A stretch of DNA of 41,810 nucleotides from an uncultured Dongia sp. (lineage in GTDB: Bacteria; Pseudomonadota; Alphaproteobacteria; Dongiales; Dongiaceae). Location: NCBI GenBank assembly GCA_964618305.1, contig CAZUAL010000002.1, forward strand, positions 1-41,810, in the 5' to 3' direction. The translations under genes were made by a program, and so were the position numbers. How positions within the stretch are numbered: position 1 is the first letter of the stretch; every line of letters starts with the position of its first letter. Below, piece after piece: positions 3,502 to 22,200 of this stretch. Under the pieces are notes generated by a model. The model was not told the DNA's origin. It saw only the letters and a program-made list of their open reading frames with translations, and searched no databases.

Positions 3502-4472
3502 TCTGCGCCCTCTGCTTGGTCAGCCGGTTGCGGGCTGAAGTGATGGTAGATATCGTCGAGGCCCGGATGCTTGATATCGATATCCGTCACCGTGGCGCCT
3601 TGTCCCACGAGGCTCGCCAGAACCGCCATCTTCGCCTCAATGGGGCAAGCGAGGGTGACCAGATCATCGGTAATGGCCAAAGCGGAGAATTCGGCCATGG
3701 CGCCGGCCAGGCGCGCGGCCGATCCTGGGCAGGTCACCTGAAAGCGCACCGGCAGGTTGGCCCGGTGCCGCAGCATCTCCAGGGGGCCAAAGGCGACCAA
3801 GTGCCCGCCATTCATTATGGCGACCAGGTCGGTCTGGGCTTCGAGTTCGGTTAGGATATGCGAAGAGATGAGCACGGTTGCGCCTCGCTCCGAGAGTTCG
3901 CGGATGATCGCGAAGAACTCGCGTCTGGAATTGGGGTCGAGCCCGGTCGTCGGTTCGTCGAGCAGCAGCAGGCGCGGCACCCCGAGCAGGGCCTGCGCGA
4001 GCCCCAGGCGCTGCCGCATGCCTTTCGAATAGGTCTTCACGCGCCGCCCGGCCGCAAAGCTCAAGCCGACGCGGTCGAGCAGGGTGGCGCATGTCCTGCG
4101 GTCGACACCTTTGAGATCGGCGTAGAATCGCAGAGTCTGGGTGCCCGTCAATTCGTCGTGGAAAGCGACATTCTCCGGCAGGAAGCCGATCTGCCGGCGA
4201 TAATCGAGGCCGGCCACCGCCGGTTGCTCGCCGAGCACCGTCAGGTCCCCGCCGCTCGGGCGGATCAGTCCCAGAATGAGCTTCATCAACGTCGTCTTGC
4301 CGGCACCATTGTGGCCGATCAACGCGACCGTGCGGCCGGGTGCGACGGACAGGTCGATTCCGTCCACGGCGCGATGCGACGCGTATTGTTTCACCAGACC
4401 GACAGCATGAATGGCCGGTTGTTCTTCACCTTGGCTGCGGTCGATCGAGGTCGTGTTCTTCATAACGTTCAT
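3498..4472 (-). CDS. nosF: ABC transporter ATP-binding protein NosF
   Basis: Walker A GHNGAGKTT, signature YSKGMRQR, Walker B LLLLDEP. Start placed at 4472, where the ATG overlaps the nosD TGA, rather than at 4682 as in the ORF track. Confidence 0.93.
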   Translation of the reverse strand: MNVMKNTTSIDRSQGEEQPAIHAVGLVKQYASHRAVDGIDLSVAPGRTVALIGHNGAGKTTLMKLILGLIRPSGGDLTVLGEQPAVAGLDYRRQIGFLPENVAFHDELTGTQTLRFYADLKGVDRRTCATLLDRVGLSFAAGRRVKTYSKGMRQRLGLAQALLGVPRLLLLDEPTTGLDPNSRREFFAIIRELSERGATVLISSHILTELEAQTDLVAIMNGGHLVAFGPLEMLRHRANLPVRFQVTCPGSAARLAGAMAEFSALAITDDLVTLACPIEAKMAVLASLVGQGATVTDIDIKHPGLDDIYHHFSPQPADQAEGAE

Positions 4473-5779
4473 GATGCCGGGTCCGCGTTGCCTTCCTCCC
4501 ACTTGACCTCGCCCGGAACATCCGGAAGGTCGCGCGGCGATGGCGGCGCGGTCATGAGAGGATGTGAATCGACGACGCCGCCGGGATAGAGGGCCGGAAA
4601 TTGACTCTGCCCCGCACGCAGGATTTCCATCGCCGGACTCGACATCAAGAGTTTCGACAATGGGTAACGCCACATGACCCAATCGACGACATCGTTTGGC
4701 CGATAGGCGGTGTCCGCCATGCCGTCACCATCCAGGTCAAAGGCTGGATTGTCACTCCAGTAATTGCCGCGCCCGTCTATCGACCATTCGTGAGACTTCG
4801 TTCCGGCGTAATGCATCTGAACCCGGTTGCCGACAAAGGAATTGCCGCCAATGAGATTTTCATCGGATCCCGTCACGTGAACGCCGATTCCGCATCCCTC
4901 GAAGCGATTGCCGATCAGCTTGTTCTGCAAAGCAAGGTAGAAGAAGAGACACTTGTCGGCTGTGCCAGAGATGACATTGTCCTGAATGTCCCCCTTGCGC
5001 GCGGAATTGAGCATCAGCCCGTAATCCCGATCCTTGACGCTGACATTGCCGTGAACTTGCAGCTGATCCGAATACATCAGCGCGTATCCGATGTGATTGC
5101 CGACGGAAATATTCTCGGTCACTGAGCCGCGCTTCGAATACATATAGTGGACGGCAAAGCGTAAATGGCTGAACCGGTTACCGACAATTGTATTGTCACT
5201 GCCGAGCTGGACGAAGATTCCGTCCCGTCCGCCGGTGACGACATTGTTCTCAATGCGTGAACCGACATTGTTCCACATGTGAACGCCGTTGCCGCGGTTG
5301 TTGAGCCACAGATCGTTGCGATTTGAGATGACGTTGTTCCGGACAATCGCGCGCTTGGGTCCGTGCAGGCTCACGCCGAACTGATTGCCTTCGAGACGGT
5401 TGTTTTCGATCAACGGGTCGTCGGCATTTTGCGCGACATAGATACCGCCGTCGATGTTGGTGCTGTTCGTGCCGGATCCGGTGATGAAAAGACCGCGCAC
5501 GGTAACACCGACAGCCTCGATCCTAATGACGCTGCCTTCACCATTGCCGATGACCTCGGCGCCGGTTTCGCCAATTATGGAGAGTTTCTTGTCGATAAGG
5601 ATTGGTCCCTGGTGCCGTCCCGGCAGCAGATCCAGAACGTCGCCAGGTGACGCGGCGGCAACAGCCTCGATGAGGTTGTTGCCGCCGGCCGCCACATTGA
5701 TGGTCCTGGCCCACGCGCCGGCCGGCATGATCGCAACAGCGATCATGATTGCCACAAGAATGGCGTCCGGTTGGCGCAT
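4469..5779 (-). CDS. nosD: Nitrous oxide reductase maturation protein NosD
   Basis: Signal peptide, beta-helix repeats, LRFAVHYMYS, GNYWSDNPAFDLDGDGMAD and PGGVVDSHPLM motifs. Confidence 0.96.
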   Translation of the reverse strand: MRQPDAILVAIMIAVAIMPAGAWARTINVAAGGNNLIEAVAAASPGDVLDLLPGRHQGPILIDKKLSIIGETGAEVIGNGEGSVIRIEAVGVTVRGLFITGSGTNSTNIDGGIYVAQNADDPLIENNRLEGNQFGVSLHGPKRAIVRNNVISNRNDLWLNNRGNGVHMWNNVGSRIENNVVTGGRDGIFVQLGSDNTIVGNRFSHLRFAVHYMYSKRGSVTENISVGNHIGYALMYSDQLQVHGNVSVKDRDYGLMLNSARKGDIQDNVISGTADKCLFFYLALQNKLIGNRFEGCGIGVHVTGSDENLIGGNSFVGNRVQMHYAGTKSHEWSIDGRGNYWSDNPAFDLDGDGMADTAYRPNDVVDWVMWRYPLSKLLMSSPAMEILRAGQSQFPALYPGGVVDSHPLMTAPPSPRDLPDVPGEVKWEEGNADPAS

Positions 5780-5785
5780 GGCGAC

Positions 5786-7720
5786 TTAGGCTTCCACCAG
5801 CATCTGCCCTGACATCTCCATATGGAGCGCATGGCAGAACCACTGGCAGTAATAGTAGAAGACGCCGGGCTTGTCGGCGACGAAGGTCACCGACGACGTC
5901 GCCTGCGGACCAACTTCCATCGCCACGCCGTAATCGACCATGGTGAAGCCATGGGTCAGATCGACGACATCGTCGATGTTGGTCTGGATGATGGTCACTT
6001 CCTCACCCAGCTTCACCTTGAAGCTGGTGATGCCGAAAGCCGGCGCAGCCGAGGTCATGTAGACGCGGACCTTGTTGCCGTCGTGGACGATCTTGTTGTC
6101 CTCTTCCAGCTTGATACCGTCCTTCTTGGCCATCTGCCGGGCGTCTTCCCACATCGGGTCGTCGCGCTTCCAGATCTCCAGCGGAGCGATCATGTTCGCC
6201 TTCATGATCGTGGCGTCATGCGGTTCCGGGAAGTTGGAGCCGTCATGGACCAGTTTCATCTCATCGCCTGAGATGTCGACAAGCTGGTCGTTCTCCGGCT
6301 TCAGCGGCCCCACGTTTATGAAGCGATCCTTGGAGAATTTGCACAAGGCGACCAGCCACTTGCCGTCTGCATCCTTGGTTTCGCTCATGGACGCATTGAC
6401 GTGGCCGACCTGGTAGTTCACGTCGAGCTTCTGCTTGATCGGGTTGATCTTCTCGCCTTTGAACTGCCGGATCGCTTCATCGATGTTCCACTTCACGATC
6501 TGTGAATCGAGGAACAGCGAAGTGTAGGCGTTGCCGCGGCCGTCGAACGAGGTGTGAAGTGGCCCAAGCCCCAATTCGACGTTGGCGACGATTGCCGATG
6601 TCGGCTCCGCCTTGCCGGCAAAGATGTCGTCGAGCTTATCCCATTCGATGACGGTTGTGGTCGGCGACAATTTGCCGTTGATCACGACATATTTCCCGTC
6701 CGGCGTGGCGTTGCAGCCGTGTGGGGAATTGGCGATGGGAATGTAGAGGGTATAGGCCGACTTGGCCTGCTTGGTGCCGTCGAGCACCGGCACGTCGTTG
6801 ATCATCTCCGCCTTGCCGGCGGCGACGGCTTCTTCAATCGCCTTGATGTTGAAGAAGACGGCGTGGTCGGTTTCAGACGAGGTCATTTCCTCGACGGTGA
6901 CACCTTCTTCGGAATTGTAGCAGGTCGAGGCCGCATACTTCCCTTTGTAGTCGGCATCATTGTTGTCGAGATTGCCGCTCACGATAACCTGCCAGGCGAC
7001 CTTCATCGTATCGCCATCGACGGCGGAGAAGACGGACCGCCATTTCTTGACGTCTTCAAGATCGCGCCCGTCATTGATAAGCGGCACCCGGTTTTCACCG
7101 TTGCAGAAGACGTACCCGGTCTTGGGATAGCGCTGGACGCGCAGGCCGTGGATCGAGTGCGCATTGGGGATCTCGATGATCTTGTCGACCTTCATCACGT
7201 CGAGGCGGATACGCGCCAGACGGGTATTCGCCTTGTCGTTGATGAAGACATAGCGGCCGTCATAGGAACCGTCGGTGACGGAGGGACGGGGATGGTGGCA
7301 GTCGCCGTTCTCGTATGTCTTCATGCCGCGCTTGGCCAGCCATTCCTTGGTCTTGGGCAGCAGGCCTTCGGTCAAGATCTTCAGGCTTTCGTTGGTCTGG
7401 CCCCATCCAGTCGCGCTGCAGCGATTGAAGACGGGGATGCGGGTGAGTTCGCGCATTGATGGAACGCCTAGAATGCGAACTTCACCTGATTGTCCGCTGC
7501 TCCAGAAGCCGACATAATCATCAAGCTTGCCCGGCGGCACGCTGACTTCGCTCGTTTCGGCGGCTTCGGCGGCCTTTGGAGTCGCGGTGACGGCCGCTGC
7601 TCCGACGACCGCACCGCCGGCGCCGGCAACGGCCAGCGACGACAAGGCGACGCCACCGCCCAACAGATCGCGGCGACTGACATTGGCGAGTTCAGTGACT
7701 TCTTCAGATTTTTTAGTCAT
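5786..7720 (-). CDS. nosZ: Tat-dependent (clade I) nitrous-oxide reductase
   Basis: Start MTKKSEE after a GGAGGAG RBS; Tat motif SRRDLL; CuZ His motifs DCHH, IHG, SPHG, GPLH, VGH and EPHD; CuA motif HGF...[12 protein letters not shown]; no C-terminal heme extension. Confidence 0.98.
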
Positions 7721-7734
7721 GGTACTCCTCCTTC

Positions 7735-9915
7735 TCAAACGGATGGATTTTCGACGGAGATTGATGCGACGGGCGCCGTTGCAGCCGCAGGTGCCGGGCG
7801 TGGTGCCGGCTTCTTGCCGCGGCCGGTCTTCTTCAACAACAGCGGTGGACAGGTTGAATCGTCCCAATAGATGACCTGGCATTGCATGCAGTAGACACAT
7901 TCATTGGGATTGATGTGGCCCAACGGATGGATGGCTTGGACGGGGCAGCGTTTGGCGCAAAGCTGGCATTCGAAACCGCATTGCTTGCGCCGTTTCAGCC
8001 ATTCGAAGAGACGCATGCGGCCAGGGATCGCGAGTGCCGCGCCAAGCGGGCAGAGATAGCGGCAGAAAAAGCGCTCGATGAAGAGGCCGGCAACGAGCAG
8101 CCCGACCGCCCAAATGACGAACGGCCATTCACGGACGAAGCGAAGCAGGACAACGGTCTTGAAAGGCTCGACTTCCGCGAATTGCTCGGCAAGGGCGAAT
8201 TCATTGAGGCTCAGGCCGAAGAGCCCGAGAAAGATGATGTACTTGATGGGCCACAGACGTTCATGCCAGTGGAATGGAATAACGATCTGCCGCACACCGA
8301 CCCGGCGGGCGATCTGATTGAGCAGTTCCTGAAGGGAGCCGAAGGGGCAAAGCCAGCCGCAAAAGGGGCCCCGCCCCCAGAAAAGGAGCGAGACGGCGGT
8401 TGCACACCATAGAATGAAGATGAGCGGTTCCAGGAGGAACTGCTCCCATCGGAAGCCACCGCTGAAGAGCGCTCCGGTGAAAGTCAGCGCGTTGACGACC
8501 GAGAGCTGCGCTTGCGCCCAGCCGCCAATCCAGACGACGGAAAAGACGAGATAGCCAATCCTGAGCGACGTAAACAGGCGCCCCTTCTTCACCAGCACGT
8601 CCTGGAAGAAGAAGATCATCGTCAGCAATGCGAGCGACAGGGACAGGATGATGATGTCGACGATCCTGCTGCGCCATATCTGCTTCCAGAGATTGCTGGC
8701 CGGGGCTGCTTCCGCAGGCTGCGGTTCGGCCGTGGCCCCTGCCGCCGCCGGTGTCGGCAGCGCCTCGACATGGATGAACCGGTCGGGAAGGTGGTAGCTC
8801 AGCGGGAAACTGGTAAAGGCCTTCTGCGTCGGCCCGGTCGGGCGCTGTGCCAGCAGGTTGATCTGCCAATCGGCCGTCGGGTCGAAGGTCAGTCCTTCCG
8901 GAATTCGGAAGAGGCCGACTTCCTTGAAAGCGGGAATGCCATCCGGCAAGTCGCCCATGCGACGGTAATCATGGTCCTTGAAGAGGATGGAGGTCTGGTC
9001 CTGCTGCAGTTGGAAGCGGTCGAAGATGCCGCCTCGGACGAACCCCGAACCACGGAAGGAATAGTCGCCATTGGCGGCGATCAGAATGGCCTGCTGGCCC
9101 GGCTTCAGCCATTTCTGCAGGCGCTGGAATTCGGCATCGCCCAGCAGATTGCGGCCGATTCCCTCGACAGAGACCAAGGCGATATAGAGGTCGACGAATT
9201 GCTCGGTCGGCACGCCAGCCCGCGCATATGGTTCCGGGCTGCCGACACCGATCTTGGTAAAGGCTGCATCGACATCGCTGTTCAGAAGATGCATCCGCCG
9301 CACCGAACCGTCGCCCAGCATGGTCTGCCAATCGGCCTTGGCGAACTGAATGTTGCTGAGTTCCCGTTTCCTTGTGTCGGTCGCCGCGGCGTCGAAACCG
9401 GCCAGACCATGCGCTTTGGCGATCTGCAGTGCGGCGCGGCTGATACCGTCATTTATGACGATGGCGGTGACGGTGGCGCCGCTGATGGCGTCTACCGACT
9501 TGGCCTCGCCGTCGACCTTGGCGACGACATTGCGGCCAACATAGGCATCGACGAAGGCAGTGAGTTTCTCGGGCGGAATGCCGACAAGCAATATCGGCTC
9601 GTGATGCTCGACGACTTTGGCGCCCCGGATGACGCCAGTCTTGTCCATGCCGACCAGCAGTTTGATCGGCTTGCCGGAATAGCCGATATCATTTGTCTCG
9701 AACACGTAGCCCAGTATTTCCTCACCCTTGAACGCGGCCATGGCCGGCGGGTTGCCTTCGCTTGGGCCAAAGCGATCGGCATCGGGAAAGACATCTTGTG
9801 GTTTGATATCGGCGGTATAGGCGCCGAAACCTTTGGCATGAGCGGCTGGCGCCGAAAATACGGGCGCGAGCAGCAGGCCGGCAAGGGTAAGGCAGCGGAG
9901 GATGCGGGTGATCAT
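7735..9915 (-). CDS. nosR: NosR flavin/Fe-S membrane protein
   Basis: FMN-binding [17 protein letters not shown] and CRYLCPLG motifs, C-terminal ferredoxin-like Cys clusters ([16 protein letters not shown]). Start at 9915 (MITRILR..., signal peptide) overlaps the upstream stop. Confidence 0.96.
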
Positions 9916-10352
9916 GCGCGGATACTCTGCAATGTCGATGGATAGGGTGGCGCTTGCGCATGCACCGAACTGGCGAATTGGCGCGGGACGGTCAGAACAG
10001 CCTTGCGCTGGTCGGCAATGTCGAGACCAGCGAGATTCCAGCGCGCGGCGAGCGCAAAGCTGCCGCCGGAGAGCATCGGACCCGTGCAGCAGCCGGTTGT
10101 GCATTGCGTCGTACAAGATGGGCAAGGTCTCGTCTTGTCCGGCCGCATTGGGGCTTTTTCCGCCGGCATCAGGCCGGTATCAACCAGGCATCGGGACTGA
10201 GCGATGAGATCGTCGAAAGCACGCGCCTTGGCGATATGTACGCCACCCAGATTGGACGCGAGAAAACCGAACACCAGCAGCGGGGCAAGCAATGCGCCGA
10301 TCACTTGGCGCGTCTGCCTCAGGGTTGCGAGTATGCGGTGCGTGCCGATCAT
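9912..10352 (-). CDS. DUF2946-like Cys-rich exported protein, possible copper-sensing leader ORF
   Basis: N-terminal hydrophobic segment, CPSCTTQCTTGCC cluster and C-terminal HAQAPP (RAPP-like); stop overlaps the nosR ATG. Family assignment is by motif architecture only. Confidence 0.7.
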   Translation of the reverse strand: MIGTHRILATLRQTRQVIGALLAPLLVFGFLASNLGGVHIAKARAFDDLIAQSRCLVDTGLMPAEKAPMRPDKTRPCPSCTTQCTTGCCTGPMLSGGSFALAARWNLAGLDIADQRKAVLTVPRQFASSVHAQAPPYPSTLQSIRA

Positions 10353-13336: not shown

Positions 13337-13771
13337 ATGGCACAAGTGAAACTGGCAGTGCGCCGCAAAAGCCAATCCGTGAAGCCCGTTCGGGGTTATC
13401 AGGGCAATGGCGTCGATGGAGAGATTCAAGTCAAGGCATTGGAGGCGTTGGCAACCGCCTACAGCCGGATCATCCGGATTCTCAGCAGTGAAATCGACCG
13501 CACGAAGAAGGATGTGGACCGGATCTCGGATCTCGGCGGGCACATGCGTTGGGTGGCGGAGCGACAGGGGCTCGTGCGCACCGCGCTGCTGGCTGGGCCG
13601 GACTATGTGACCTATGTCTGCGGCGACTGCCGTGATCTGCCGCAGGTCTATTCATTGGCTGAAATGGCGGCGAAGCTTGCCAATGACGGCAATGCATTCC
13701 CGACCACGCTCAACTTGCTGAACTATATCGACGGGGAACTGGGCTGGTCGCAAGCGGCCGGGCACGCATGA
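13337..13771 (+). CDS. Hypothetical protein (144 aa, CxxC motif)
   Basis: AAGAGGG RBS; sole plausible ORF in the gap; contains VCGDCR; no family recognised. Confidence 0.7.
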   Translation: MAQVKLAVRRKSQSVKPVRGYQGNGVDGEIQVKALEALATAYSRIIRILSSEIDRTKKDVDRISDLGGHMRWVAERQGLVRTALLAGPDYVTYVCGDCRDLPQVYSLAEMAAKLANDGNAFPTTLNLLNYIDGELGWSQAAGHA

Positions 13772-13796: not shown

Positions 13797-14240
13797 CTAC
13801 TCGTCGCGTCCGAGGGAGCGCGCAAGATCGACCAGATGCTTGCGCACCCGCGGATTCTTGATCTGGTAATAGGCGCGGACCAGTTCCAGGGTCTCACGGC
13901 GCGCCATCGGGTCCTTCTGCGCGTCTTCCGTGGCCGGTGCGGCGGCCGGATGCTCACCGCTCTGCGTGGCGAAGTCGGCCTCCATCCCTTCGAAGAAGTA
14001 GGGGATGCCGATATCGAGGACCCGCGCGATGTCGAAGAGGCGGCTTGAACTGACACGGTTCGCGCCGGATTCGTACTTCTGGATCTGCTGGAATGTGAGC
14101 CCGATCGACCTGGCGAGCTTCTCCTGGCTCATCCCGAGCAGGGTTCGACGCAAATGGATCTTCTTCCCAACATGAACATCGATGGGATTGGGAACACCTT
14201 TGCCGGCTGCTGAGCCGGCGCTGCCGCGCGCACGCGCCAT
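13797..14240 (-). CDS. XRE-family HTH transcriptional regulator
   Basis: PNPIDVHVGKKIHLRRTLLGMSQEKLARSIGLTFQQIQKYESGANRVSSSRL, a typical alphaproteobacterial HTH_3 protein. Confidence 0.93.
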   Translation of the reverse strand: MARARGSAGSAAGKGVPNPIDVHVGKKIHLRRTLLGMSQEKLARSIGLTFQQIQKYESGANRVSSSRLFDIARVLDIGIPYFFEGMEADFATQSGEHPAAAPATEDAQKDPMARRETLELVRAYYQIKNPRVRKHLVDLARSLGRDE

Positions 14241-14323: not shown

Positions 14324-15454
14324 TCATTGCTGCGAAGATGGTGCGGAGGGCGGGAAAACCGCGCGCCGAAGGACCTTGCTGGCACAGCGGGGCCCGCCGC
14401 CTGCCCGCGCCAGAGCACTCCAGCCAAAAACGGGCACAATTTCGAACTCGATTTCTTCCCAAATAAGGCGGTTGCGCCGATCGAATTCGGCCAATTCAGG
14501 TTCCAGATCCGAAAATTGCGGCAGCCAGGCGAGTGGGCGCGCCTTCCCGCAATTTGTGCGCGCGTTATTCTCCAGGAACACGTTATTGAAAGGACGCAGG
14601 CTCGGATTCGGGCTGAATTGCGGATGCGCCAGATAGGGCACAGGATTGCGGACGACCGCAAAGCCGTCGGCTAAGAGGCGATTGGCGCTCGCGTCGAGTT
14701 GCTCCGCCCAGCCGGGGACACGCGGTCCATCGGGATCCGGCCCAGCGCGCGGATCCGCCAGGACCAGAAGTGGGCGCCCGTCCCGAGATCTCAGCCCCGT
14801 CACGGACAAGACGAGGTCGACATGATGCGGCTGCTGGCGAAGCTCGGTCGCTGTGCCGGCCTGCGCGGGCAGGGCGAAGCCGAAGACATGCAGCGGCCGA
14901 GGATCGCTCGCGCGATGGCACGCCAGTGCGTCGTCGAAGCTCAGCGGATTGACGCCGACATATCTTGTCTGCTCGACACTCTGCGCGCCGACGATGCGGA
15001 AGTCCGGGCCCATCAGCGTGTTGCCGCCGGTAAGGTGCAGCGGCAGGTCGCTCATGGGTGCCGGCAGTGCGGATGAAAGCCAATCCGCTTGCCGGCCGGG
15101 CCGGTCAGTGAACTTCAGACGATAGAGATGGAGATTGCCGGCGTGGTTCGCCACCATGAAAGGATCCTGCGACCACATCTCGGATTCCATCAGCGGTTCG
15201 TCGGGACCGGCGCCGACAATGGTCAGACGGCACGCGGCATCCATTTCTTCGATCCAACGTTGAAACAGCGGCGCGGCGGGATCGTCCGTCATCAGGAACA
15301 GCTGGATCGGCGACGGCAGGGCTTGAATGAGCTTGGCGAAGGCGCGGGCCTTGCCGTCATCCCGGTGCAGCATCTGGCAAGGTATGGTCATCGCCATGGC
15401 TTCTATCTGGCCGCCGCAATCGGCAACGAAATGCGCTTCAGCGGGTGTGCTCAT
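14324..15454 (-). CDS. Pentein-superfamily guanidino-modifying enzyme (arginine/peptidylarginine deiminase- or amidinotransferase-like)
   Basis: Ordered motifs MWSQD, GGN, HHVD, FNN and C-terminal GGGPRCASK give a candidate Asp-His-Asp-Cys catalytic set; ATGA overlap with tfuA. Confidence 0.75.
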   Translation of the reverse strand: MSTPAEAHFVADCGGQIEAMAMTIPCQMLHRDDGKARAFAKLIQALPSPIQLFLMTDDPAAPLFQRWIEEMDAACRLTIVGAGPDEPLMESEMWSQDPFMVANHAGNLHLYRLKFTDRPGRQADWLSSALPAPMSDLPLHLTGGNTLMGPDFRIVGAQSVEQTRYVGVNPLSFDDALACHRASDPRPLHVFGFALPAQAGTATELRQQPHHVDLVLSVTGLRSRDGRPLLVLADPRAGPDPDGPRVPGWAEQLDASANRLLADGFAVVRNPVPYLAHPQFSPNPSLRPFNNVFLENNARTNCGKARPLAWLPQFSDLEPELAEFDRRNRLIWEEIEFEIVPVFGWSALARAGGGPRCASKVLRRAVFPPSAPSSQQ

Positions 15455-16173
15455 TGGCTGCGCCGCCGCACATCGTCGAGCAATGCGTCAAAGAACATCG
15501 TGTGACTGAAGGGTGCCGGCAGCGATTGCCTCTCGGCGGCAATATCCGATCTGCGCATCGCGTCGATGAGCAGCAGCGCATCGGCCGTCTTGATGGAGAC
15601 GCGGTGCGTTTTGACGAGAGCCAGCGTCCGATCAGCTTCGGGGATGTCGGCGCGGTCGATCAGGAATTGCCAGCTGCGATCCTTGAAGTGCGCGGCCCGC
15701 GCGGCCGCAAGCAGACGCGTGCAACGTTCCGCCGGCAAGAGTCCGGCACTGGTCAAGTTCGCCAGTGTCGCTTCGATGTCGACAAGGGCTTCAGTGAGCG
15801 GTTGGTGACCAAGGCCGGCCGGCCCGTGGACGACGGCCACATCCGCATCGGCCGTCCGCCGCCCGGATAGGTAATCATTGTAGATTTGGCCGATGCCCTG
15901 CATGCCGAAGGCGGCACACTCGGCGGCACGCAAGGCTCCCAAGCTCGCTGCGCCAAAGACAGCGACACCGCGATCGAGCGCGAAGAGGATTTCCTTGTGC
16001 CAGGTCGAGGGGCTGAATTCGAACGTCCCGTCGACCAGGCCAATGACTGTAGCCCCATCGAGCACGGCAGCAAGCAGATCGCCCTTGCCGGCGGGCGGGC
16101 GCAGTTCAATCTCGCCAAGCTCCGTCCCGGGCACGCTGCTAAGGCTGGGGCCGGCGAAGAGGATGCGCCTCAT
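15451..16173 (-). CDS. tfuA: TfuA-like protein (thioamidation partner of YcaO)
   Basis: FAGPSL, RPPAGKGDL, IGLVDG.F, WHKEILFAL, GAASLGALRAAE and DADVAVVHGP motifs; ATGA overlap with ycaO. Confidence 0.95.
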   Translation of the reverse strand: MRRILFAGPSLSSVPGTELGEIELRPPAGKGDLLAAVLDGATVIGLVDGTFEFSPSTWHKEILFALDRGVAVFGAASLGALRAAECAAFGMQGIGQIYNDYLSGRRTADADVAVVHGPAGLGHQPLTEALVDIEATLANLTSAGLLPAERCTRLLAAARAAHFKDRSWQFLIDRADIPEADRTLALVKTHRVSIKTADALLLIDAMRRSDIAAERQSLPAPFSHTMFFDALLDDVRRRSQ

Positions 16174-17351
16174 GTTGCGGCTTTCATGAGAGCATCAAGC
16201 AGGCCCATCCCGCCCTGGCTGATGCCGGCTTCCATGCTGGCACCAAGGTCCGGCACGAGGACACGGAAGACCGAGAAACCGAGGCCCTTCGGCGCCAAGG
16301 GAAAGCAAAAGACGTCGTCGATGCCGGCTCTCGCCAGCCGATGCATGATATCGCGCAGGTTGGCTTCGGGATCACGATGGTCGCAGCACGGAAGGTGACC
16401 CGGAACCAGGTCGAAGCTGGCAAGCGGATCCGCGCTTTGCCGCAGACTGGCGCGGGAGCCGCGATAGACTTGATCTTTGATGTCGTCGCGCGCGCCGGCG
16501 ATATCGGTGGCGCGCGACTGGACGCATTCCAACAATGCGGCCGCGGCGGCCTGATAGGCATCCAAACGGCAGGCGAATCCGGCCGTCAGTGTCGTGCCGA
16601 CACCCTCGTCCGTGGCGACCTGGCGATCCAGAAAGCAGGCAATCACCGGGATGGGCACCCGGCCACCCAAGGCGAAGAACCTTGGCGCAAAACCGGCCTC
16701 GTGGACCAGTGCGATCAGCCGGTCGAGCTCTTCATGCGCTCCCGCGTCATGACGTACGGGCTTGGCAATGGACAATCCCAAGAGATCAAGGGTCGAAGTC
16801 GCATCGTGTTCGATGACTTCGAGCAGCGCGTGCAAGATGGCGGCAGCATCGTTCGCCCCGGCGCCCAAGCCGATGGAGGACATCGCAAAGGCGCCGTGGT
16901 CCCAGGGAGCATTGTGCCGCATGTCGAGGCCGATCAGTTCGTAAGGGGCCGCGACCTTTGACCCAGCACGCAAGGAATGACCTTGCACCCAAGCGAGACC
17001 TTGAGAAGGGTGCAATCGATCGGGCCTGATCCGCATGAGCCTGTCGAAGTCGAGGGGGCGGAGGCCGCGATTCCGCGCCTCTTGGGGCGTGACCTGATAG
17101 ATGACGAGATCCTCGGGCCGCTCCGCGCACGCCCCTTCGGCCGCTTCCATGATGGCGGAGATGCGCGCCTGCCGATCCGTCGCGCCTTTCCCCTGCGAGA
17201 CGGACAAGGCGCGGGCGTTCGGCCGGCAGGCGAACCAGACGGGCAGGCCGACGGTATCGAGCCCGGTCAGATCGCCGACGCGCGTGATGCCCAATTGCCG
17301 GAGCAGGCGCGGATCGGCGATCCCAGTCGCGAATAGATCCTCGTCAGGCAA
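16170..17351 (-). CDS. ycaO: YcaO-family protein, TfuA-associated (thioamide-forming type)
   Basis: GITRVGDLTGLD..G.P, VSQGKG, SAIMEAAE, SSIGLGAG, ALLEVIEHD and ECVQSR...AGARDD motifs; lacks the Pro-rich C-terminus of azoline-forming YcaOs; TTG start. Confidence 0.94.
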   Translation of the reverse strand: MPDEDLFATGIADPRLLRQLGITRVGDLTGLDTVGLPVWFACRPNARALSVSQGKGATDRQARISAIMEAAEGACAERPEDLVIYQVTPQEARNRGLRPLDFDRLMRIRPDRLHPSQGLAWVQGHSLRAGSKVAAPYELIGLDMRHNAPWDHGAFAMSSIGLGAGANDAAAILHALLEVIEHDATSTLDLLGLSIAKPVRHDAGAHEELDRLIALVHEAGFAPRFFALGGRVPIPVIACFLDRQVATDEGVGTTLTAGFACRLDAYQAAAAALLECVQSRATDIAGARDDIKDQVYRGSRASLRQSADPLASFDLVPGHLPCCDHRDPEANLRDIMHRLARAGIDDVFCFPLAPKGLGFSVFRVLVPDLGASMEAGISQGGMGLLDALMKAAT

Positions 17352-17360
17352 AGACCGGAC

Positions 17361-17771
17361 TTAGACGAGCTGACCGTCTTTGAGCTGCGTGTCGGGCGGC
17401 AGAGACGGATTGAGATCGGCCAGAGCGCTGGAAAGTGGGGCGGCAACCCAACGGGTGGTCGCCCAGTCCGTGTCGTCCACTTCTGCGACAAAGCAGAAGT
17501 CGGCATCGGAAACCGTGGCGCCCTTGGCGATCATCTGGCCGAGCGCCTGATAGGTGGTGTCGACGTCCGGGAAAGACTGTGCAACTTCGGTTTTGTTGAT
17601 CATGGCCTTTGCGCCGGCCGCCACCTGCGCGAACGCCGCGTCAAAGCTGGTGCCATGCTGGGTGGCATAGGCTTCTATTGTCGCCTTGCTGATATGCGTC
17701 AACTTGAGTGGATCAGTCTTGACGAAGAGAACGCCAATATTCCGATCCCCAATCACATAAAGTCTAGCCAT
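17361..17771 (-). CDS. Hypothetical protein (136 aa), candidate substrate or partner of YcaO-TfuA
   Basis: Fills the gap between the regulator and ycaO on the same strand; GGGGG RBS before ATG 17771 (alternative start 17783); ends 9 bp before ycaO. Confidence 0.8.
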   Translation of the reverse strand: MARLYVIGDRNIGVLFVKTDPLKLTHISKATIEAYATQHGTSFDAAFAQVAAGAKAMINKTEVAQSFPDVDTTYQALGQMIAKGATVSDADFCFVAEVDDTDWATTRWVAAPLSSALADLNPSLPPDTQLKDGQLV

Positions 17772-17784
17772 TGCGACCCCCATG

Positions 17785-19734
17785 TTAGGTTGAATGCAGT
17801 TCCGCCAGCCTAAGGCCCTCGGTGAACTTCTTGCGCGTATGCTCGTGCTTCAACGGCACAAAGCTGCAAATATTTTCAATGTTCTGATCCGGATAGAGTT
17901 CCTTGAGGCGCCTGCCATAGCCGCGCGCTTCCTCGTGGCGACCTAGATAGGCGTGCGACGCTGTTAGCAGTCTGACGACTGATTCCTGAGATTCCATTTT
18001 GCTGCAGAACTCTATGACCTTTTCATGGTCGTCGGCAAGAAAGGCCACACTGGCACCCGCCCACCAGAAATGATCTGGCGCAAATGGATTGAGATCGATC
18101 GCACGCTCAAAGCGCTGCAGTCCCGCTGCGGCATCGCCGAAGCAGGCCAGCGCGTCGGCGTGTTGCACCAGCAGATCGGCGGAATTCGGATTGAGCGCCT
18201 CTGCTTCCGAAAATTTCTCCTCGGAATAGTCGAAGTCGCGCTGATAAAGGGCAATGACGCCGGACATCATGTGATTGAACCCGGCGGCCGGGTCCATCTC
18301 GACGGAGCGGTCGACAAGTTCGCGGGCGCGCCGCAGCAGATCCGGATCGTCGCCGCCCAAGGTGATCCATTCCAGATAGAGGGTCTGGGCAATGCGGGCA
18401 TGGGCCAGGGAGAGGCCCTTGTTGAGCTCAATCGCCTGCTGGAACGAGCGGCGGGCCCGGCGGAGCTTGGGGAGGTCGCAATTCTTGAGCAGGTTCTGGC
18501 CGTCGAGATAGTGGAGATAGGCCTGGCTGTTGCCGTCGCGGCGCATGGCATCGAGCAGATGGCGTTCGACTTCGGCGGCGATGGAAGAGGCGACCTGCAG
18601 GGAAAGCAGGCGGAACGACCGCACCAGATCCTCAGGCCGGAAGGAGAACTCGCCCGCCCAGAGGATCTCACTGCTGCTGCAATCGGTCATGCGCAGCACC
18701 AGAAGCTGATCGCGCTCGCTCGGCTTGACGAAGCCGCTCACCGTGAAGTCGGCGCGCAGGACCGAATTGTCGATCGGCACGCCGGAATCGTGGGCGAGCT
18801 TGAACGAGGAATGCGGCGCCAGCGTCACGAAGGTGCGGTAGCGCGCCAGTTCGTTGGCGATATCCTCGACCAAGGCACCTACCAGCGCATTCTGCGACGG
18901 GTCCGCCGGCAAGATCCAGGCGGGTGCGAGGAAGGCGACGCGGGGCTGCGCGATGACGCGGCGCTCGCTCTGCGGTGCCGTTGCGACACTGCCGCCGCCG
19001 CGCCCGGCTAGGATGCGGCGCATGACGGCCGCTGTTTCCGGCTGCGGCGGTACGCCGAATTCGCGTTCCAGCATGGCGACGAGGGAGCGGTAGGTTCTCT
19101 CCGCTCCTTCAAACATGCCGTTGCGGCCATATGCCTCGATGAGGCTCCGATAGCTGGCCTCGCGTTCCGGGTCGAGGGCCAGCATGCGATCGGCGACGGC
19201 CCGGAGATCCTGTTCGGGCGCGCGGCCAAAACGCGTGAGTTCGATGAGGATCGACGACGCAGCAGAGAAGAACCGTTCGCGCAGGGCAGAGCGTTCGACG
19301 GTCAGCCAATGCGCAAAGGCATCCGTCGTCTCCGGGATTCCCTCTAGCAGGTCGCCGCGGAACAGCATGAGGCTGCGCAGCGCCTGTTCGGGAAAGCCGG
19401 AGCGGTAGCCGATTTCGAAGAGGTTGAGGTCAATGAGCGCACCGCCGCCGCCAAGCGCCACGGATTTCGCGTCGGAATCGATCAGCTCGTCATGGCCGCT
19501 GCTTGCCTTGCGTATCCGCGCCAGCAATTGGCGCAAATTGGCCAGGGCGGCCGCTTCGGTATCATTGTCCCACAGGAGTTGCGCGATTTCCTTGCGGCCC
19601 AGCCGCTTTGTGGGCGCGCGGGCGAGCAGGGCCAGCAACTGGAAGCCTTTGGCCGGAAAAAGCGCCGGCCCGGCCGGATGAACCATTTCCGGCACGCCAA
19701 GCAGGCGAATTTCAATATCTGATTCGAGCCCCAT
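17785..19734 (-). CDS. SARP-like regulator: wHTH + BTAD + TolB-like + TPR domains
   Basis: IRLLG, LLALLA, LLW and NLRQLLARIRK (SARP DNA-binding region); FRGDLLEG..FAHWLTVER and LDPEREASYRSLIEAY (BTAD); DIANELARYR and TPR repeats (AIELNKG, AEALNPNSAD, AIDLNPFAP). Start placed at 19734. Confidence 0.88.
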   Translation of the reverse strand: MGLESDIEIRLLGVPEMVHPAGPALFPAKGFQLLALLARAPTKRLGRKEIAQLLWDNDTEAAALANLRQLLARIRKASSGHDELIDSDAKSVALGGGGALIDLNLFEIGYRSGFPEQALRSLMLFRGDLLEGIPETTDAFAHWLTVERSALRERFFSAASSILIELTRFGRAPEQDLRAVADRMLALDPEREASYRSLIEAYGRNGMFEGAERTYRSLVAMLEREFGVPPQPETAAVMRRILAGRGGGSVATAPQSERRVIAQPRVAFLAPAWILPADPSQNALVGALVEDIANELARYRTFVTLAPHSSFKLAHDSGVPIDNSVLRADFTVSGFVKPSERDQLLVLRMTDCSSSEILWAGEFSFRPEDLVRSFRLLSLQVASSIAAEVERHLLDAMRRDGNSQAYLHYLDGQNLLKNCDLPKLRRARRSFQQAIELNKGLSLAHARIAQTLYLEWITLGGDDPDLLRRARELVDRSVEMDPAAGFNHMMSGVIALYQRDFDYSEEKFSEAEALNPNSADLLVQHADALACFGDAAAGLQRFERAIDLNPFAPDHFWWAGASVAFLADDHEKVIEFCSKMESQESVVRLLTASHAYLGRHEEARGYGRRLKELYPDQNIENICSFVPLKHEHTRKKFTEGLRLAELHST

Positions 19735-19851: not shown

Positions 19852-19906
19852 TCGACTGCCGGACACTACACCCCGAAAATGAACGATTTGGTTAAGCGGG
19901 GTGAAG

Positions 19907-20611
19907 ATGGTCGAAACCGTCCGGCGTCTTCGAACAGGATGGGCAGGCGTGGAGCCGGCAATGGAAGCGCCAAGGCCGGGTGCAGTGCTGCCCACTGAAA
20001 TGGCAGCCCTCATCTGCCCGGATTGGCGCATGCCGTCCCTGGTGATCGCGGCTCCGGGCGGAGAAGTGGCCTATGCAAACACACCCTGCCTGCAGATGCT
20101 GGCGGCGCGTGACACGATCGAGATCGTCGATGGCCGCCTGTCGTTCCTGGCCCCCCAAATCACCGAGAAGTTCTTCAGCCTGCTGGAGCGCATGCTGGCC
20201 AACGGGCTGGAAGAGGCCACGCTGATCGAGCGCGACCGAGGCGGTGGGATCGTCATTTCCGCTCTCATCCGGAACATGCAGGGCTTCTTCCGCGACGTCG
20301 TCGCACGCCACGCGGGCGGATCCGACAGCACACGATTTGCCGTCATTGAACTGGCCAGCAGCCGTGACCGGCTGGCCTGGCCGGCAATGCGTGCCTTCGC
20401 GCAGGCCTTTGATCTCAGCACGCCCGAGGCGGAAATCGCGGAACTGATGACGCAGGGCCTGTCGGACGAGGAAATGTCCGTCACGAATAAGCGGTCGCTT
20501 ACGGATGTGCGCTCGCTGCAGCGGAGCCTCTTCAGGAAAACCAATTGCCGGCACGCGGCGCAGTTCGTGCGGCTTGTCATGACCCTTTGCCCGCCGGCGC
20601 GGTCCGCATGA
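19907..20611 (+). CDS. PAS-like + LuxR-type HTH transcriptional regulator (no receiver domain)
   Basis: GEVAYANTPCLQML (PAS-like); FDLSTPEAEIAELMTQGLSDEEMS...VRSLQRSLFRKTNCRHAAQFVRLV (LuxR HTH). Exact start uncertain. Confidence 0.8.
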   Translation: MVETVRRLRTGWAGVEPAMEAPRPGAVLPTEMAALICPDWRMPSLVIAAPGGEVAYANTPCLQMLAARDTIEIVDGRLSFLAPQITEKFFSLLERMLANGLEEATLIERDRGGGIVISALIRNMQGFFRDVVARHAGGSDSTRFAVIELASSRDRLAWPAMRAFAQAFDLSTPEAEIAELMTQGLSDEEMSVTNKRSLTDVRSLQRSLFRKTNCRHAAQFVRLVMTLCPPARSA

Positions 20612-22200
20612 GGGAAAAGGCTGACACGAAGCCGTGGGCTGAGCTGCTGAGCCGCCGCTCCGCGATGTCATGGGTGGTTGCGGCACTCCTCTGTCTCGCG
20701 ATCGTCGGCATTGCCGCCTTCCTGCTGGTCAATGATTATCGTGCCGTCGAGGCGGAGGGGCAGCAGCGCGCCGACAATCTCGCGGGGATCGCCGCGGCGC
20801 AGATGACCTCCACGCTGAGTGCGCTCGATGTGGGATTGCGGATGGTCGAAATGCCCGAAGCTGGGGCGGGGAACGGCAACCGCGAGGCTGCGCTTGACCG
20901 TCTGGCGGATGCGATTCCCGCGATCAGCGATCTCCGCTTCATCGATACTGGCGCTGCGGCGCATATTGCAAAGGCTGCGGACCGGGAGACTTTGCTTCAT
21001 CACGAAAACGACACCGATACCGGCGTGCGTTTCAGCCGGCTCGGGCAGGACGGCGGCACCTTGCTTTTTTCTCGGCGGCTCAGTGGCGGCGACGGCTATT
21101 TCGCCGGCATCGTGATCGGCCATCTTGATGTCGGTTATTTCTCAGGATTTTTGCGGGATCTTGGCGCCGATTCCGCGACTTTGCGTCTTGCCGGCCAATC
21201 CCGGCTGACGCTGTTCGGCCGCGATGGCAATCCCAGCGGAACCGCGCCATTCACCGCCGCCGCGACCTTGAATGGCTATCCCCTGTCGGTCGAGATCGGG
21301 CTGGATCGGCAGAAGCTGATGGCCGCCTGGGAAAGCCGGCGCAATGTTGGCATCGCCCTGGTCTTCGTTCTCTTGATCCTGGTGCTCGGCGCCGTGATCG
21401 CCTACCGCCAGCATGCGACACAGGCGCTGACCCTGGCCGGCCTTGAGGCCATGACCAAGATGGAGGCGGCGGCACGCCGGCGCGCCGACGAGATCAGCCG
21501 CCGCAAGTCGGACTTCATTTCGAACATGAGCCATGAATTGCGGACGCCCCTGAATGCCATCATCGGCTTCTCGGAAGTGATCAAGGAGGAATCCTTCGGG
21601 CCGGTCGGCCTGCCGCGCTACCGCGAGTATGCCGATGACATCCACTACAGCGCCCAGCACCTGTTGGCCGTCATCAACAACATTCTGGACCTCTCCAAGG
21701 TCGAGGCGGGCAAGTGGCAGATTTCAGACGACAAGGTCGATCTTGGCGAACTCATCAGCTCGCTCACGCGCCTTGCGGCCGAGCGCGCGACACGCGAGAA
21801 TGTCCAGCTTGCCATCGCCGCCGCCCCGGACGACATCGTCATCCGGGGTGACAAGCGCACGCTGCTTCAGATCATGCTCAACCTCACGATCAATGCGATC
21901 AAGTTCGCCGGGCCGGATCGCTGCGTGGATCTGGGCGTCAGCCGTCTGGGCGACGGCAGTCTCGCGATCGATGTCGCCGATCACGGCAATGGAATGACGA
22001 AGGAAGAGCAAATGCTGGCGATGCGTCCGTTCGATGCGCCGAACACGGACAAGCGCAAGCAGGACACCGGGCTTGGCCTCCCGCTTGCCGCGGCTTTCGC
22101 CGAACTGCATGGCGGGCGGGTCGAATTGCAGAGTGCGCCGGGTGCCGGTACGACCGCGCGTCTCATCCTGCCGGCCGCGCGCGTGCAAGGATCCTGCTAG
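20608..22200 (+). CDS. Membrane sensor histidine kinase (PleC/DivJ-like HisKA)
   Basis: Two TM helices flank a periplasmic domain; H-box FISNMSHELRTPLNAIIGFSE, N-box NLTINAIKF, DHGNGM and DTGLGL. ATG 20608 overlaps the upstream stop. Confidence 0.92.
   Translation: MREKADTKPWAELLSRRSAMSWVVAALLCLAIVGIAAFLLVNDYRAVEAEGQQRADNLAGIAAAQMTSTLSALDVGLRMVEMPEAGAGNGNREAALDRLADAIPAISDLRFIDTGAAAHIAKAADRETLLHHENDTDTGVRFSRLGQDGGTLLFSRRLSGGDGYFAGIVIGHLDVGYFSGFLRDLGADSATLRLAGQSRLTLFGRDGNPSGTAPFTAAATLNGYPLSVEIGLDRQKLMAAWESRRNVGIALVFVLLILVLGAVIAYRQHATQALTLAGLEAMTKMEAAARRRADEISRRKSDFISNMSHELRTPLNAIIGFSEVIKEESFGPVGLPRYREYADDIHYSAQHLLAVINNILDLSKVEAGKWQISDDKVDLGELISSLTRLAAERATRENVQLAIAAAPDDIVIRGDKRTLLQIMLNLTINAIKFAGPDRCVDLGVSRLGDGSLAIDVADHGNGMTKEEQMLAMRPFDAPNTDKRKQDTGLGLPLAAAFAELHGGRVELQSAPGAGTTARLILPAARVQGSC

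Follow-up and report, generated by a model that had tools for sequence, protein, structure and literature searches.

A conserved YcaO-TfuA-pentein operon from an uncultured Dongia sp. as a candidate thioamitide-type peptide family with an arginine-bearing precursor

The DNA analyzed here is a 41,810-nucleotide stretch from an uncultured Dongia sp. (assembly GCA_964618305.1, contig CAZUAL010000002.1; hereafter the window). An operon of five minus-strand genes in it encodes, in order, a regulator with BTAD and TPR domains, a 136-aa orphan protein, a YcaO protein, a TfuA protein and an enzyme of the pentein superfamily. The operon was confirmed and is conserved. The orphan most likely serves as the precursor of a modified peptide, and a conserved arginine of its core covaries with an arginine of the YcaO ATP-binding motif. 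We propose, with about even confidence, that the operon represents an apparently uncharacterized family of thioamitide-type RiPPs (peptides made by ribosomes and modified after translation), in which the orphan precursor would acquire a thioamide beside Arg107 and this arginine would be citrullinated.

The operon and its 136-aa orphan

The five open reading frames (ORFs) are separated by gaps of 13, 9, −4 and −4 bp, as a model-made first-pass annotation of the sequence had described (Table 1). In Pfam, the regulator matched BTAD (E 5e-19) and TPR_2 above the cut-off and Trans_reg_C below it, while nothing passed the cut-off for the orphan or the pentein enzyme. TfuA residues 2–208 match the solved TfuA structure 6xp8 (E 9e-25). 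The ycaO and tfuA genes are adjacent, as in thioamitide RiPP clusters. Both marks of azoline-forming YcaO proteins, an E1-like partner and a Pro-rich C-terminal tail, are missing, the latter as annotated and as the C-terminus confirms. The annotation had also seen no protease, exporter, RiPP recognition element (RRE) or ThiS in the operon, and indeed no protease, exporter, PqqD/RRE or ThiS scored among the five genes; the same 83%-complete genome has three ThiS-family matches, all on other contigs. A promoter and terminator scan of the locus returned chance-level signals only.

Table 1. Operon genes, parts of the orphan and the accessory regulator gene, in window coordinates
Feature	Position	Strand	Description
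SARP-like regulator, 649 aa	17785..19734	-	winged helix (weak), BTAD, C-terminal TPRs
Orphan, 136 aa, likely precursor	17361..17771	-	predicted folded leader, then recognition strand, core with Arg and follower
Leader domain, residues 1-88	17508..17771	-	predicted three strands then helices
Cassette, residues 89-113	17433..17507	-	hydrophobic strand (F92), acidic spacer, W103-x3-R107, P112; repeat unit of multi-core homologs
Arg107 codon, predicted modification site	17451..17453	-	invariant in close homologs
YcaO, 393 aa, TTG start	16170..17351	-	Pfam YcaO E 7e-55
TfuA, 240 aa	15451..16173	-	Pfam TfuA E 1e-40
Pentein enzyme, 376 aa, AgD/PPAD-like	14324..15454	-	structure model; likely peptidyl-arginine deiminase
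XRE-type helix-turn-helix regulator, accessory	13797..14240	-	Pfam HTH_3; travels with cluster

The orphan was found in 9 of 41 related genomes, every one within the same genus, and the five-gene order is kept in all eight other same-genus loci that hold it. A genome scan anchored on the pentein gene yielded 14 loci, of which 11 were examined. Eight of these contain the orphan-YcaO-TfuA-pentein set (in Rhizobium, Ciceribacter, Stappia, Roseibium and relatives); the regulator is visible in seven of the eight, and the remaining contig begins at the orphan. The three most distant penteins of the 11 lack the orphan-YcaO-TfuA set. Absence of co-occurrence in other genomes had been named in advance as a possible refutation, which these loci speak against. 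The full gene set also resides on a Neorhizobium plasmid. Among 19 metagenome pattern matches, 15 were true orphans and four false; YcaO lies directly downstream in 12 of the 15, two are cut by a contig edge and one looks chimeric, and a BTAD regulator stands upstream in 12, the other three loci being too short. At one locus (L042:114-1067) the precursor N-terminus runs on in the same frame into a reductase-like sequence of no relation to it, probably through chimeric assembly. The family is patchy: the orphan occurs in 3 of 401 class-wide genomes and in 11 of 401 genomes of the order that holds Rhizobium, and it was absent from 130 genomes of another order and from an initial genome scan.

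The orphan is coding, since its gene differs from four relatives mainly at the third positions of codons. A profile search returned 90 representatives, 85 of them with the N-terminal domain; conservation was counted over 55 rows picked from 117 (full-length, mostly non-repetitive). Within the cassette, F92 is kept in 54 of the 55 rows, R107, 15 residues past F92, in 53, and P112 in 48, and in 27 of 27 close homologs Arg107 stands amid variable neighbors. The leader of about 88 residues, the hydrophobic strand, the acidic spacer and a Pro-led follower after the cassette are common to the homologs. Tandem repeats past residue 55 were detected in 12/85 homologs (200 shuffles gave 0.12 on average and at most 1); within the first 60 residues they occur in 1/85. 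One precursor (L038) carries six copies of the whole cassette, another (L045) repeats an Arg-bearing 4-mer, and at a further locus (L044) two precursor genes stand in tandem. Homologs of Labrys type (from a single family with large genomes; their precursors are similar to clusters carrying the name Labrys) have the same leader and follower around Gln/Ala-rich repeats, and seven loci combine such repeat cores and the same leader with YcaO and TfuA and without pentein. In the common Rhizobium leguminosarum plasmid BTAD-YcaO-TfuA cluster, the slot of the orphan is occupied by a 47-aa peptide.

By its sequence architecture, a conserved leader followed by a variable or repeated core, the orphan resembles the co-encoded precursors of thioamitide RiPPs, and we consider it most likely to be the precursor of a modified peptide. 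The first-pass annotation had allowed for an atypical long precursor, and the orphan's occupation of the 47-aa peptide slot and the repeated, exchangeable cores agree with that suggestion; the claim in the annotation's title that the system has no classical precursor is not supported, because the orphan very likely is the precursor.

The leader was modeled with a predicted local distance difference test score (pLDDT) of about 75–79 over residues 1–50 and lower beyond. Profile searches of the PDB and Pfam with the orphan were blank, the ESM Atlas gave no usable match, and a fold search on a weak model of the orphan (pLDDT 59) found nothing above Z 4.7. An RRE/PqqD assignment for the N-terminus gained no profile support (hhalign probability 0.3% against 25 PqqD sequences); the fold search bearing on it used the same weak model. 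No fused longer forms were found among 7,996 candidates, which is weak evidence.

YcaO active site and covariation with the core

The published YcaO ATP-binding motif ends in ExxER (PMC7774982). The operon YcaO keeps the motif glutamates, while the Arg of ExxER is replaced by His182 and a second usual Arg by Ala; the lack of the ExxER Arg was overlooked in the earlier annotation. The incomplete motif makes it less probable that this is a canonical thioamide synthetase; it does not lower the probability that the protein works like one. For comparison we used alphaproteobacterial YcaO proteins encoded beside tfuA, after dropping three family rows and one fragment. The ExxER Arg was present in 26/26 readable controls versus 0/22 family members first aligned, and the second Arg in 22/25 controls versus 0/40 orphan-linked YcaOs. 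The first-motif Arg of archaeal YcaO was discarded as a diagnostic, being absent from all 26 controls as well.

The YcaO motif was readable in 42 of 51 precursor loci. Thirty-three of these have an Arg-less YcaO, and the core has an Arg at position +15 from the recognition strand in 28 and nearby in the other five. The remaining nine have an ExxER YcaO, and none has an Arg at +15. Pentein follows the same division: of the 27 assessable loci where YcaO is Arg-less, 22 have it, and of the nine ExxER loci none does. In a quick tree all 40 orphan-linked YcaOs group together in a single clade (SH-aLRT 100), with the YcaO of the Rhizobium plasmid cluster as the nearest outgroup in our YcaO trees. 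The ExxER forms are nested inside this clade, and within them one subclade has regained His, paired with Arg at +15, while its sister has Lys at +15 and retains ExxER. A single clade of Arg-less YcaOs was rejected (p-AU 0.0007; 24 rows, trait columns removed), for a group defined by the trait itself after the first tree had been seen. The ExxER Arg of YcaO covaries with the core Arg, and the tree shows two switches or more; since the loci are related, the covariation amounts to about two events, and a Fisher test overstates it.

Pentein enzyme, proposed pathway and alternatives

Sequence searches failed to place the pentein enzyme, and its identity is taken from the structure model alone. The model (pLDDT 93.6) has the five-fold alpha/beta propeller of the pentein superfamily, with agmatine deiminases (AgD) and peptidyl-arginine deiminases (PAD) as best matches (Z 26.7–28.7, Foldseek E 4e-13; for 1xkn, Z 28.7, root-mean-square deviation 3.3 Å over 312 residues), so that a call first made by eye held up. 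Agmatine deiminase and putative PAD structures tie for the closest fold at Z 28.1–28.7, and amidinotransferases (Z 19.8–20.5), DDAH and arginine deiminase match lower, at Z 18–20.5 overall. D97, H211, D213 and C357, corresponding to the catalytic Asp, His-x-Asp and Cys, are invariant in 30/30 members; their catalytic roles are presumably those of their PAD4 and AgD counterparts, and a W-x-Q-D stretch we take to resemble PAD4. The PAD Pfam matched 0/30 members, and PF04371 matched two of the three distant relatives. The modeled enzyme belongs to the pentein superfamily with an intact catalytic set and is likely a peptidyl-arginine deiminase; on the model, structure alone does not separate AgD from PAD.

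The closest known system is that of thiovarsolin, the var cluster of Streptomyces varsoviensis, which is described with a YcaO, a TfuA, an amidinotransferase and an Arg-repeat precursor, with no protease, and with the thioamide at the Pro-Arg bond (PMC6511847). The enzyme mix is therefore not wholly without precedent, which weakens the earlier statement that the combination is recognized from no characterized pathway. Both systems join YcaO and TfuA to a gene for a guanidino-modifying enzyme without a dedicated protease, and both have repeated Arg-bearing cores with an aromatic residue at −4 from Arg, to which the thiovarsolin repeat adds Asp at −7 (PMC6511847); in our family the aromatic is present in 39/53 cores and an acidic residue at −7 in 23/53. 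We regard this three-residue likeness of the sequences as a lead, not as homology. Pro precedes the core Arg in 0/53, and a short VarA-like leader with Ala/Gly-Pro-Arg cores is absent. VarA is described as a 113-aa protein whose repeats follow about 34 residues, whereas the orphan has a predicted folded leader of about 88 residues and a follower, and on reading, without an alignment, the two leaders look unrelated. VarS is reported to be a dispensable amidinotransferase, in contrast to the AgD/PPAD-like model of our pentein. No VarO, VarL or transporter was found among the operon genes and scanned flanking ORFs, and the BTAD-TPR regulator, unlike in thiovarsolin, is a constant of the orphan operons. 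To judge from its sequences, the operon appears to work like a thioamitide pathway without being a thiovarsolin.

In the pathway that we propose, the regulator would switch on the operon, and the leader and F92 strand would recruit the enzymes and present the core. YcaO with TfuA would turn the backbone C=O beside Arg107 into C=S, probably, by analogy to thiovarsolin, at the bond just before Arg107, and the pentein would deiminate Arg107 to citrulline. Sulfur may reach TfuA from a ThiS-family carrier encoded elsewhere, as TfuA is described to draw on ThiS-type carriers (PMC13063428). Two steps are the weakest. In one, the Arg of the substrate would occupy the place of the Arg lost from YcaO, or require its space; in the other, with no protease or exporter, the product would stay on the protein or be freed by housekeeping peptidases, possibly as an intracellular ligand of the TPR regulator. 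If the substrate Arg stands in for the lost Arg of YcaO, thioamidation would precede deimination. Narrowed to a new RiPP class with a folded leader of about 88 residues, in which Arg107 of the precursor completes the YcaO ATP site, the neighboring bond is thioamidated and the in-operon deiminase then erases the Arg and so fixes the product, the proposal becomes rather unlikely. At its extreme, the two enzymes would together make thiocitrulline and the product would be an intracellular signal for the TPR regulator.

Several observations weigh against a thioamide beside Arg107 followed by citrullination. The residue before Arg107 varies freely, unlike the fixed Pro-Arg site of thiovarsolin, and the pentein-family gene of that cluster is dispensable. 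Because the ExxER Arg is universal in the controls and part of the published motif, the operon YcaO may have impaired activity or a different chemistry. An adjacent pentein is missing from five loci with an Arg core and an Arg-less YcaO, three of the nine ExxER-type cores contain 1–4 Arg elsewhere, and the roughly two switches behind the covariation both fall in a single family (10 genomes). Conservation extends to the follower helix and W103, as it would in a folded protein.

Under one alternative, which we consider unlikely, the orphan is thioamidated and the pentein acts on a small guanidino compound, transfers an amidino group or is dispensable like VarS, whose deletion left thiovarsolins unaffected (PMC6511847). 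The AgD structures among the closest folds and the five Arg-core loci lacking an adjacent pentein favor this view, while the lower match to amidinotransferases, the 4-bp overlap of the pentein gene with tfuA and the absence of pentein from 9/9 loci whose cores lack the positional Arg argue against it.

It appears improbable that the chemistry is instead a serial one on side chains, the pentein making citrulline and YcaO-TfuA then sulfurating its ureido carbonyl (thiocitrulline) or closing an amidine ring through an Arg-derived nitrogen, with pentein-free members using Gln side chains. YcaOs are reported to accept amine nucleophiles (PMC12670281), the site of our YcaO is altered at three usually conserved positions, and the seven pentein-free repeat cores contain 11–28 Gln each; against this, characterized YcaO-TfuA pairs are described to make backbone thioamides (PMC6511847, PMC13174530), and in five loci an Arg-less YcaO occurs with no pentein. 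Ala, too, is abundant in the Gln repeats, in keeping with backbone thioamides as in thioviridamide.

We likewise give little credence to the orphan as an accessory, either an adaptor or a sulfur donor through Cys93, to the modification of a folded protein elsewhere such as McrA or uL16. Folded proteins are indeed YcaO targets (PMC13063428), the orphan has a compact predicted domain and Cys93 is invariant in 27/27 close homologs; however, it is present in only 39/55 diverse homologs, and the low-complexity repeat cores, whose copy number varies, agree with a substrate, as do gene duplication and covariation of core and enzyme.

The absence of the ExxER Arg from the family YcaOs first aligned, and of the second Arg from all 40 orphan-linked YcaOs, would also suit a YcaO that is a pseudo-enzyme or binding scaffold, with no thioamide and the pentein as the sole active modifier, but we hold this to be quite doubtful, as the motif glutamates, the N-terminal glycine-lysine-glycine segment and the full length are conserved at 40–60% identity, TfuA remains adjacent to YcaO, and close relatives regain the ExxER Arg where their core is different, a pattern closer to tuning than to decay.

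Related systems, variant loci and neighboring genes

Other known systems share single steps with the proposed thioamidation and citrullination of the orphan. In citrulassins, which are lasso peptides, a pentein deiminase converts Arg of a ribosomal peptide to citrulline, as is proposed here, the PAD lying outside the cluster and the product having a lasso fold and, as described, no thioamide, in contrast to a candidate deiminase inside our operon (PMC12971885). In the std cluster of Streptomyces thermodiastaticus, the YcaO-TfuA thioamide has a ureido amino acid as its neighbor; this residue is homocitrulline from Lys carbamoylation, and the paper reports a peptidase and an MNIO and no encoded deiminase (PMC13174530). 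McrA and uL16 are thioamidated by YcaO without export, the uL16 site adjoining an Arg, and differ as housekeeping proteins from a co-encoded repeat precursor (PMC13063428). The open literature, subscription journals not being covered, yielded no description of a YcaO-TfuA-pentein system, in agreement with the earlier view of the operon as undescribed, and no thioamide-plus-citrulline combination; cluster tables cited in PMC8120280 may list such loci.

The common Rhizobium/Sinorhizobium plasmid cluster (BTAD > 47-aa peptide > YcaO > TfuA) has the same scaffold, with regulators about 30% identical and an XRE gene nearby, and differs in its short unrelated peptide, canonical ExxER YcaO and lack of pentein. 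Rhizobium TfuA clusters are described as counted but not characterized (PMC8120280), and the open literature gave no known product for this one, whose scaffold the operon matches. The 47-aa peptide between the BTAD regulator and YcaO-TfuA (L054:5721-5864, L055:5722-5865) is likely an uncharacterized thioamitide precursor. The YcaO query matched 159 Rhizobium plasmid records, of which two were inspected; in some, tfuA and the regulator are annotated "toxin".

For the proposed thioamide-plus-citrulline combination, the operon offers a system that is compact and expressible and in which the site, Arg107, is named, and the switching of the YcaO motif Arg with the substrate Arg at least twice is a natural experiment on YcaO site choice. 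That one leader serves cores as different as a lone Arg cassette and long Gln/Ala repeats points to a thioamidation platform with broad tolerance. Precursors of 130–330 aa likely escape precursor finders built for short ORFs.

Five loci (L137, L138, L139, L143 and L144, in genomes G879, G766, G824, G903 and G796) are arrays in which three BTAD-TPR regulators stand with two precursor-YcaO modules and one shared tfuA. Gln/Ala-rich 6-mer repeats form a long run in one precursor, and L139 has an FMN-binding (PF04299) gene between precursor and YcaO. At L140 (G694:C1:6542000-6560000), two YcaO genes, an EamA transporter gene and tfuA come after a single repeat precursor; the transporter was the only exporter-like gene noticed inside these clusters. 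L135 and L136 hold regulator-precursor-YcaO modules without adjacent tfuA, in genomes that carry tfuA at another such locus. Precursor variants lacking genomic context (P0076, P0134, P0130, P0143, P0148, P0150) include two leader domains in one chain and repeats of Arg-Arg-Trp, His-Lys-Ser, His-Gln-Ala-Asn, Ser-Ala-Asn-Ile and Gln-Ala-Thr-Ser.

The XRE gene accompanies the cluster in 8/8 same-genus and 5/8 Rhizobiales loci and also stands beside the common Rhizobium scaffold. A 144-aa orphan ORF (window 13337-13771, plus strand), convergent with the XRE gene, is genus-conserved, with a paralogous copy on contig C47. In Rhizobium loci, too, the XRE gene is adjoined by small helical ORFs. In two Rhizobium genomes, a gene for a very long Ser/Thr/Ala-rich repeat protein (>1,770 aa) starts about 1.6 kb 3′ of the pentein gene (L022:9756-15083, L028:9762-15074). 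On the other side of the operon, a LuxR-like gene and a DivJ-like histidine kinase gene (window 19901-22200, plus strand) are divergent from it and adjoin it in 8/8 same-genus loci. The nitrous oxide reductase genes nosR, nosZ and nosD (Pfam; window 4469-10125, minus strand) are ordinary and unrelated to the operon.

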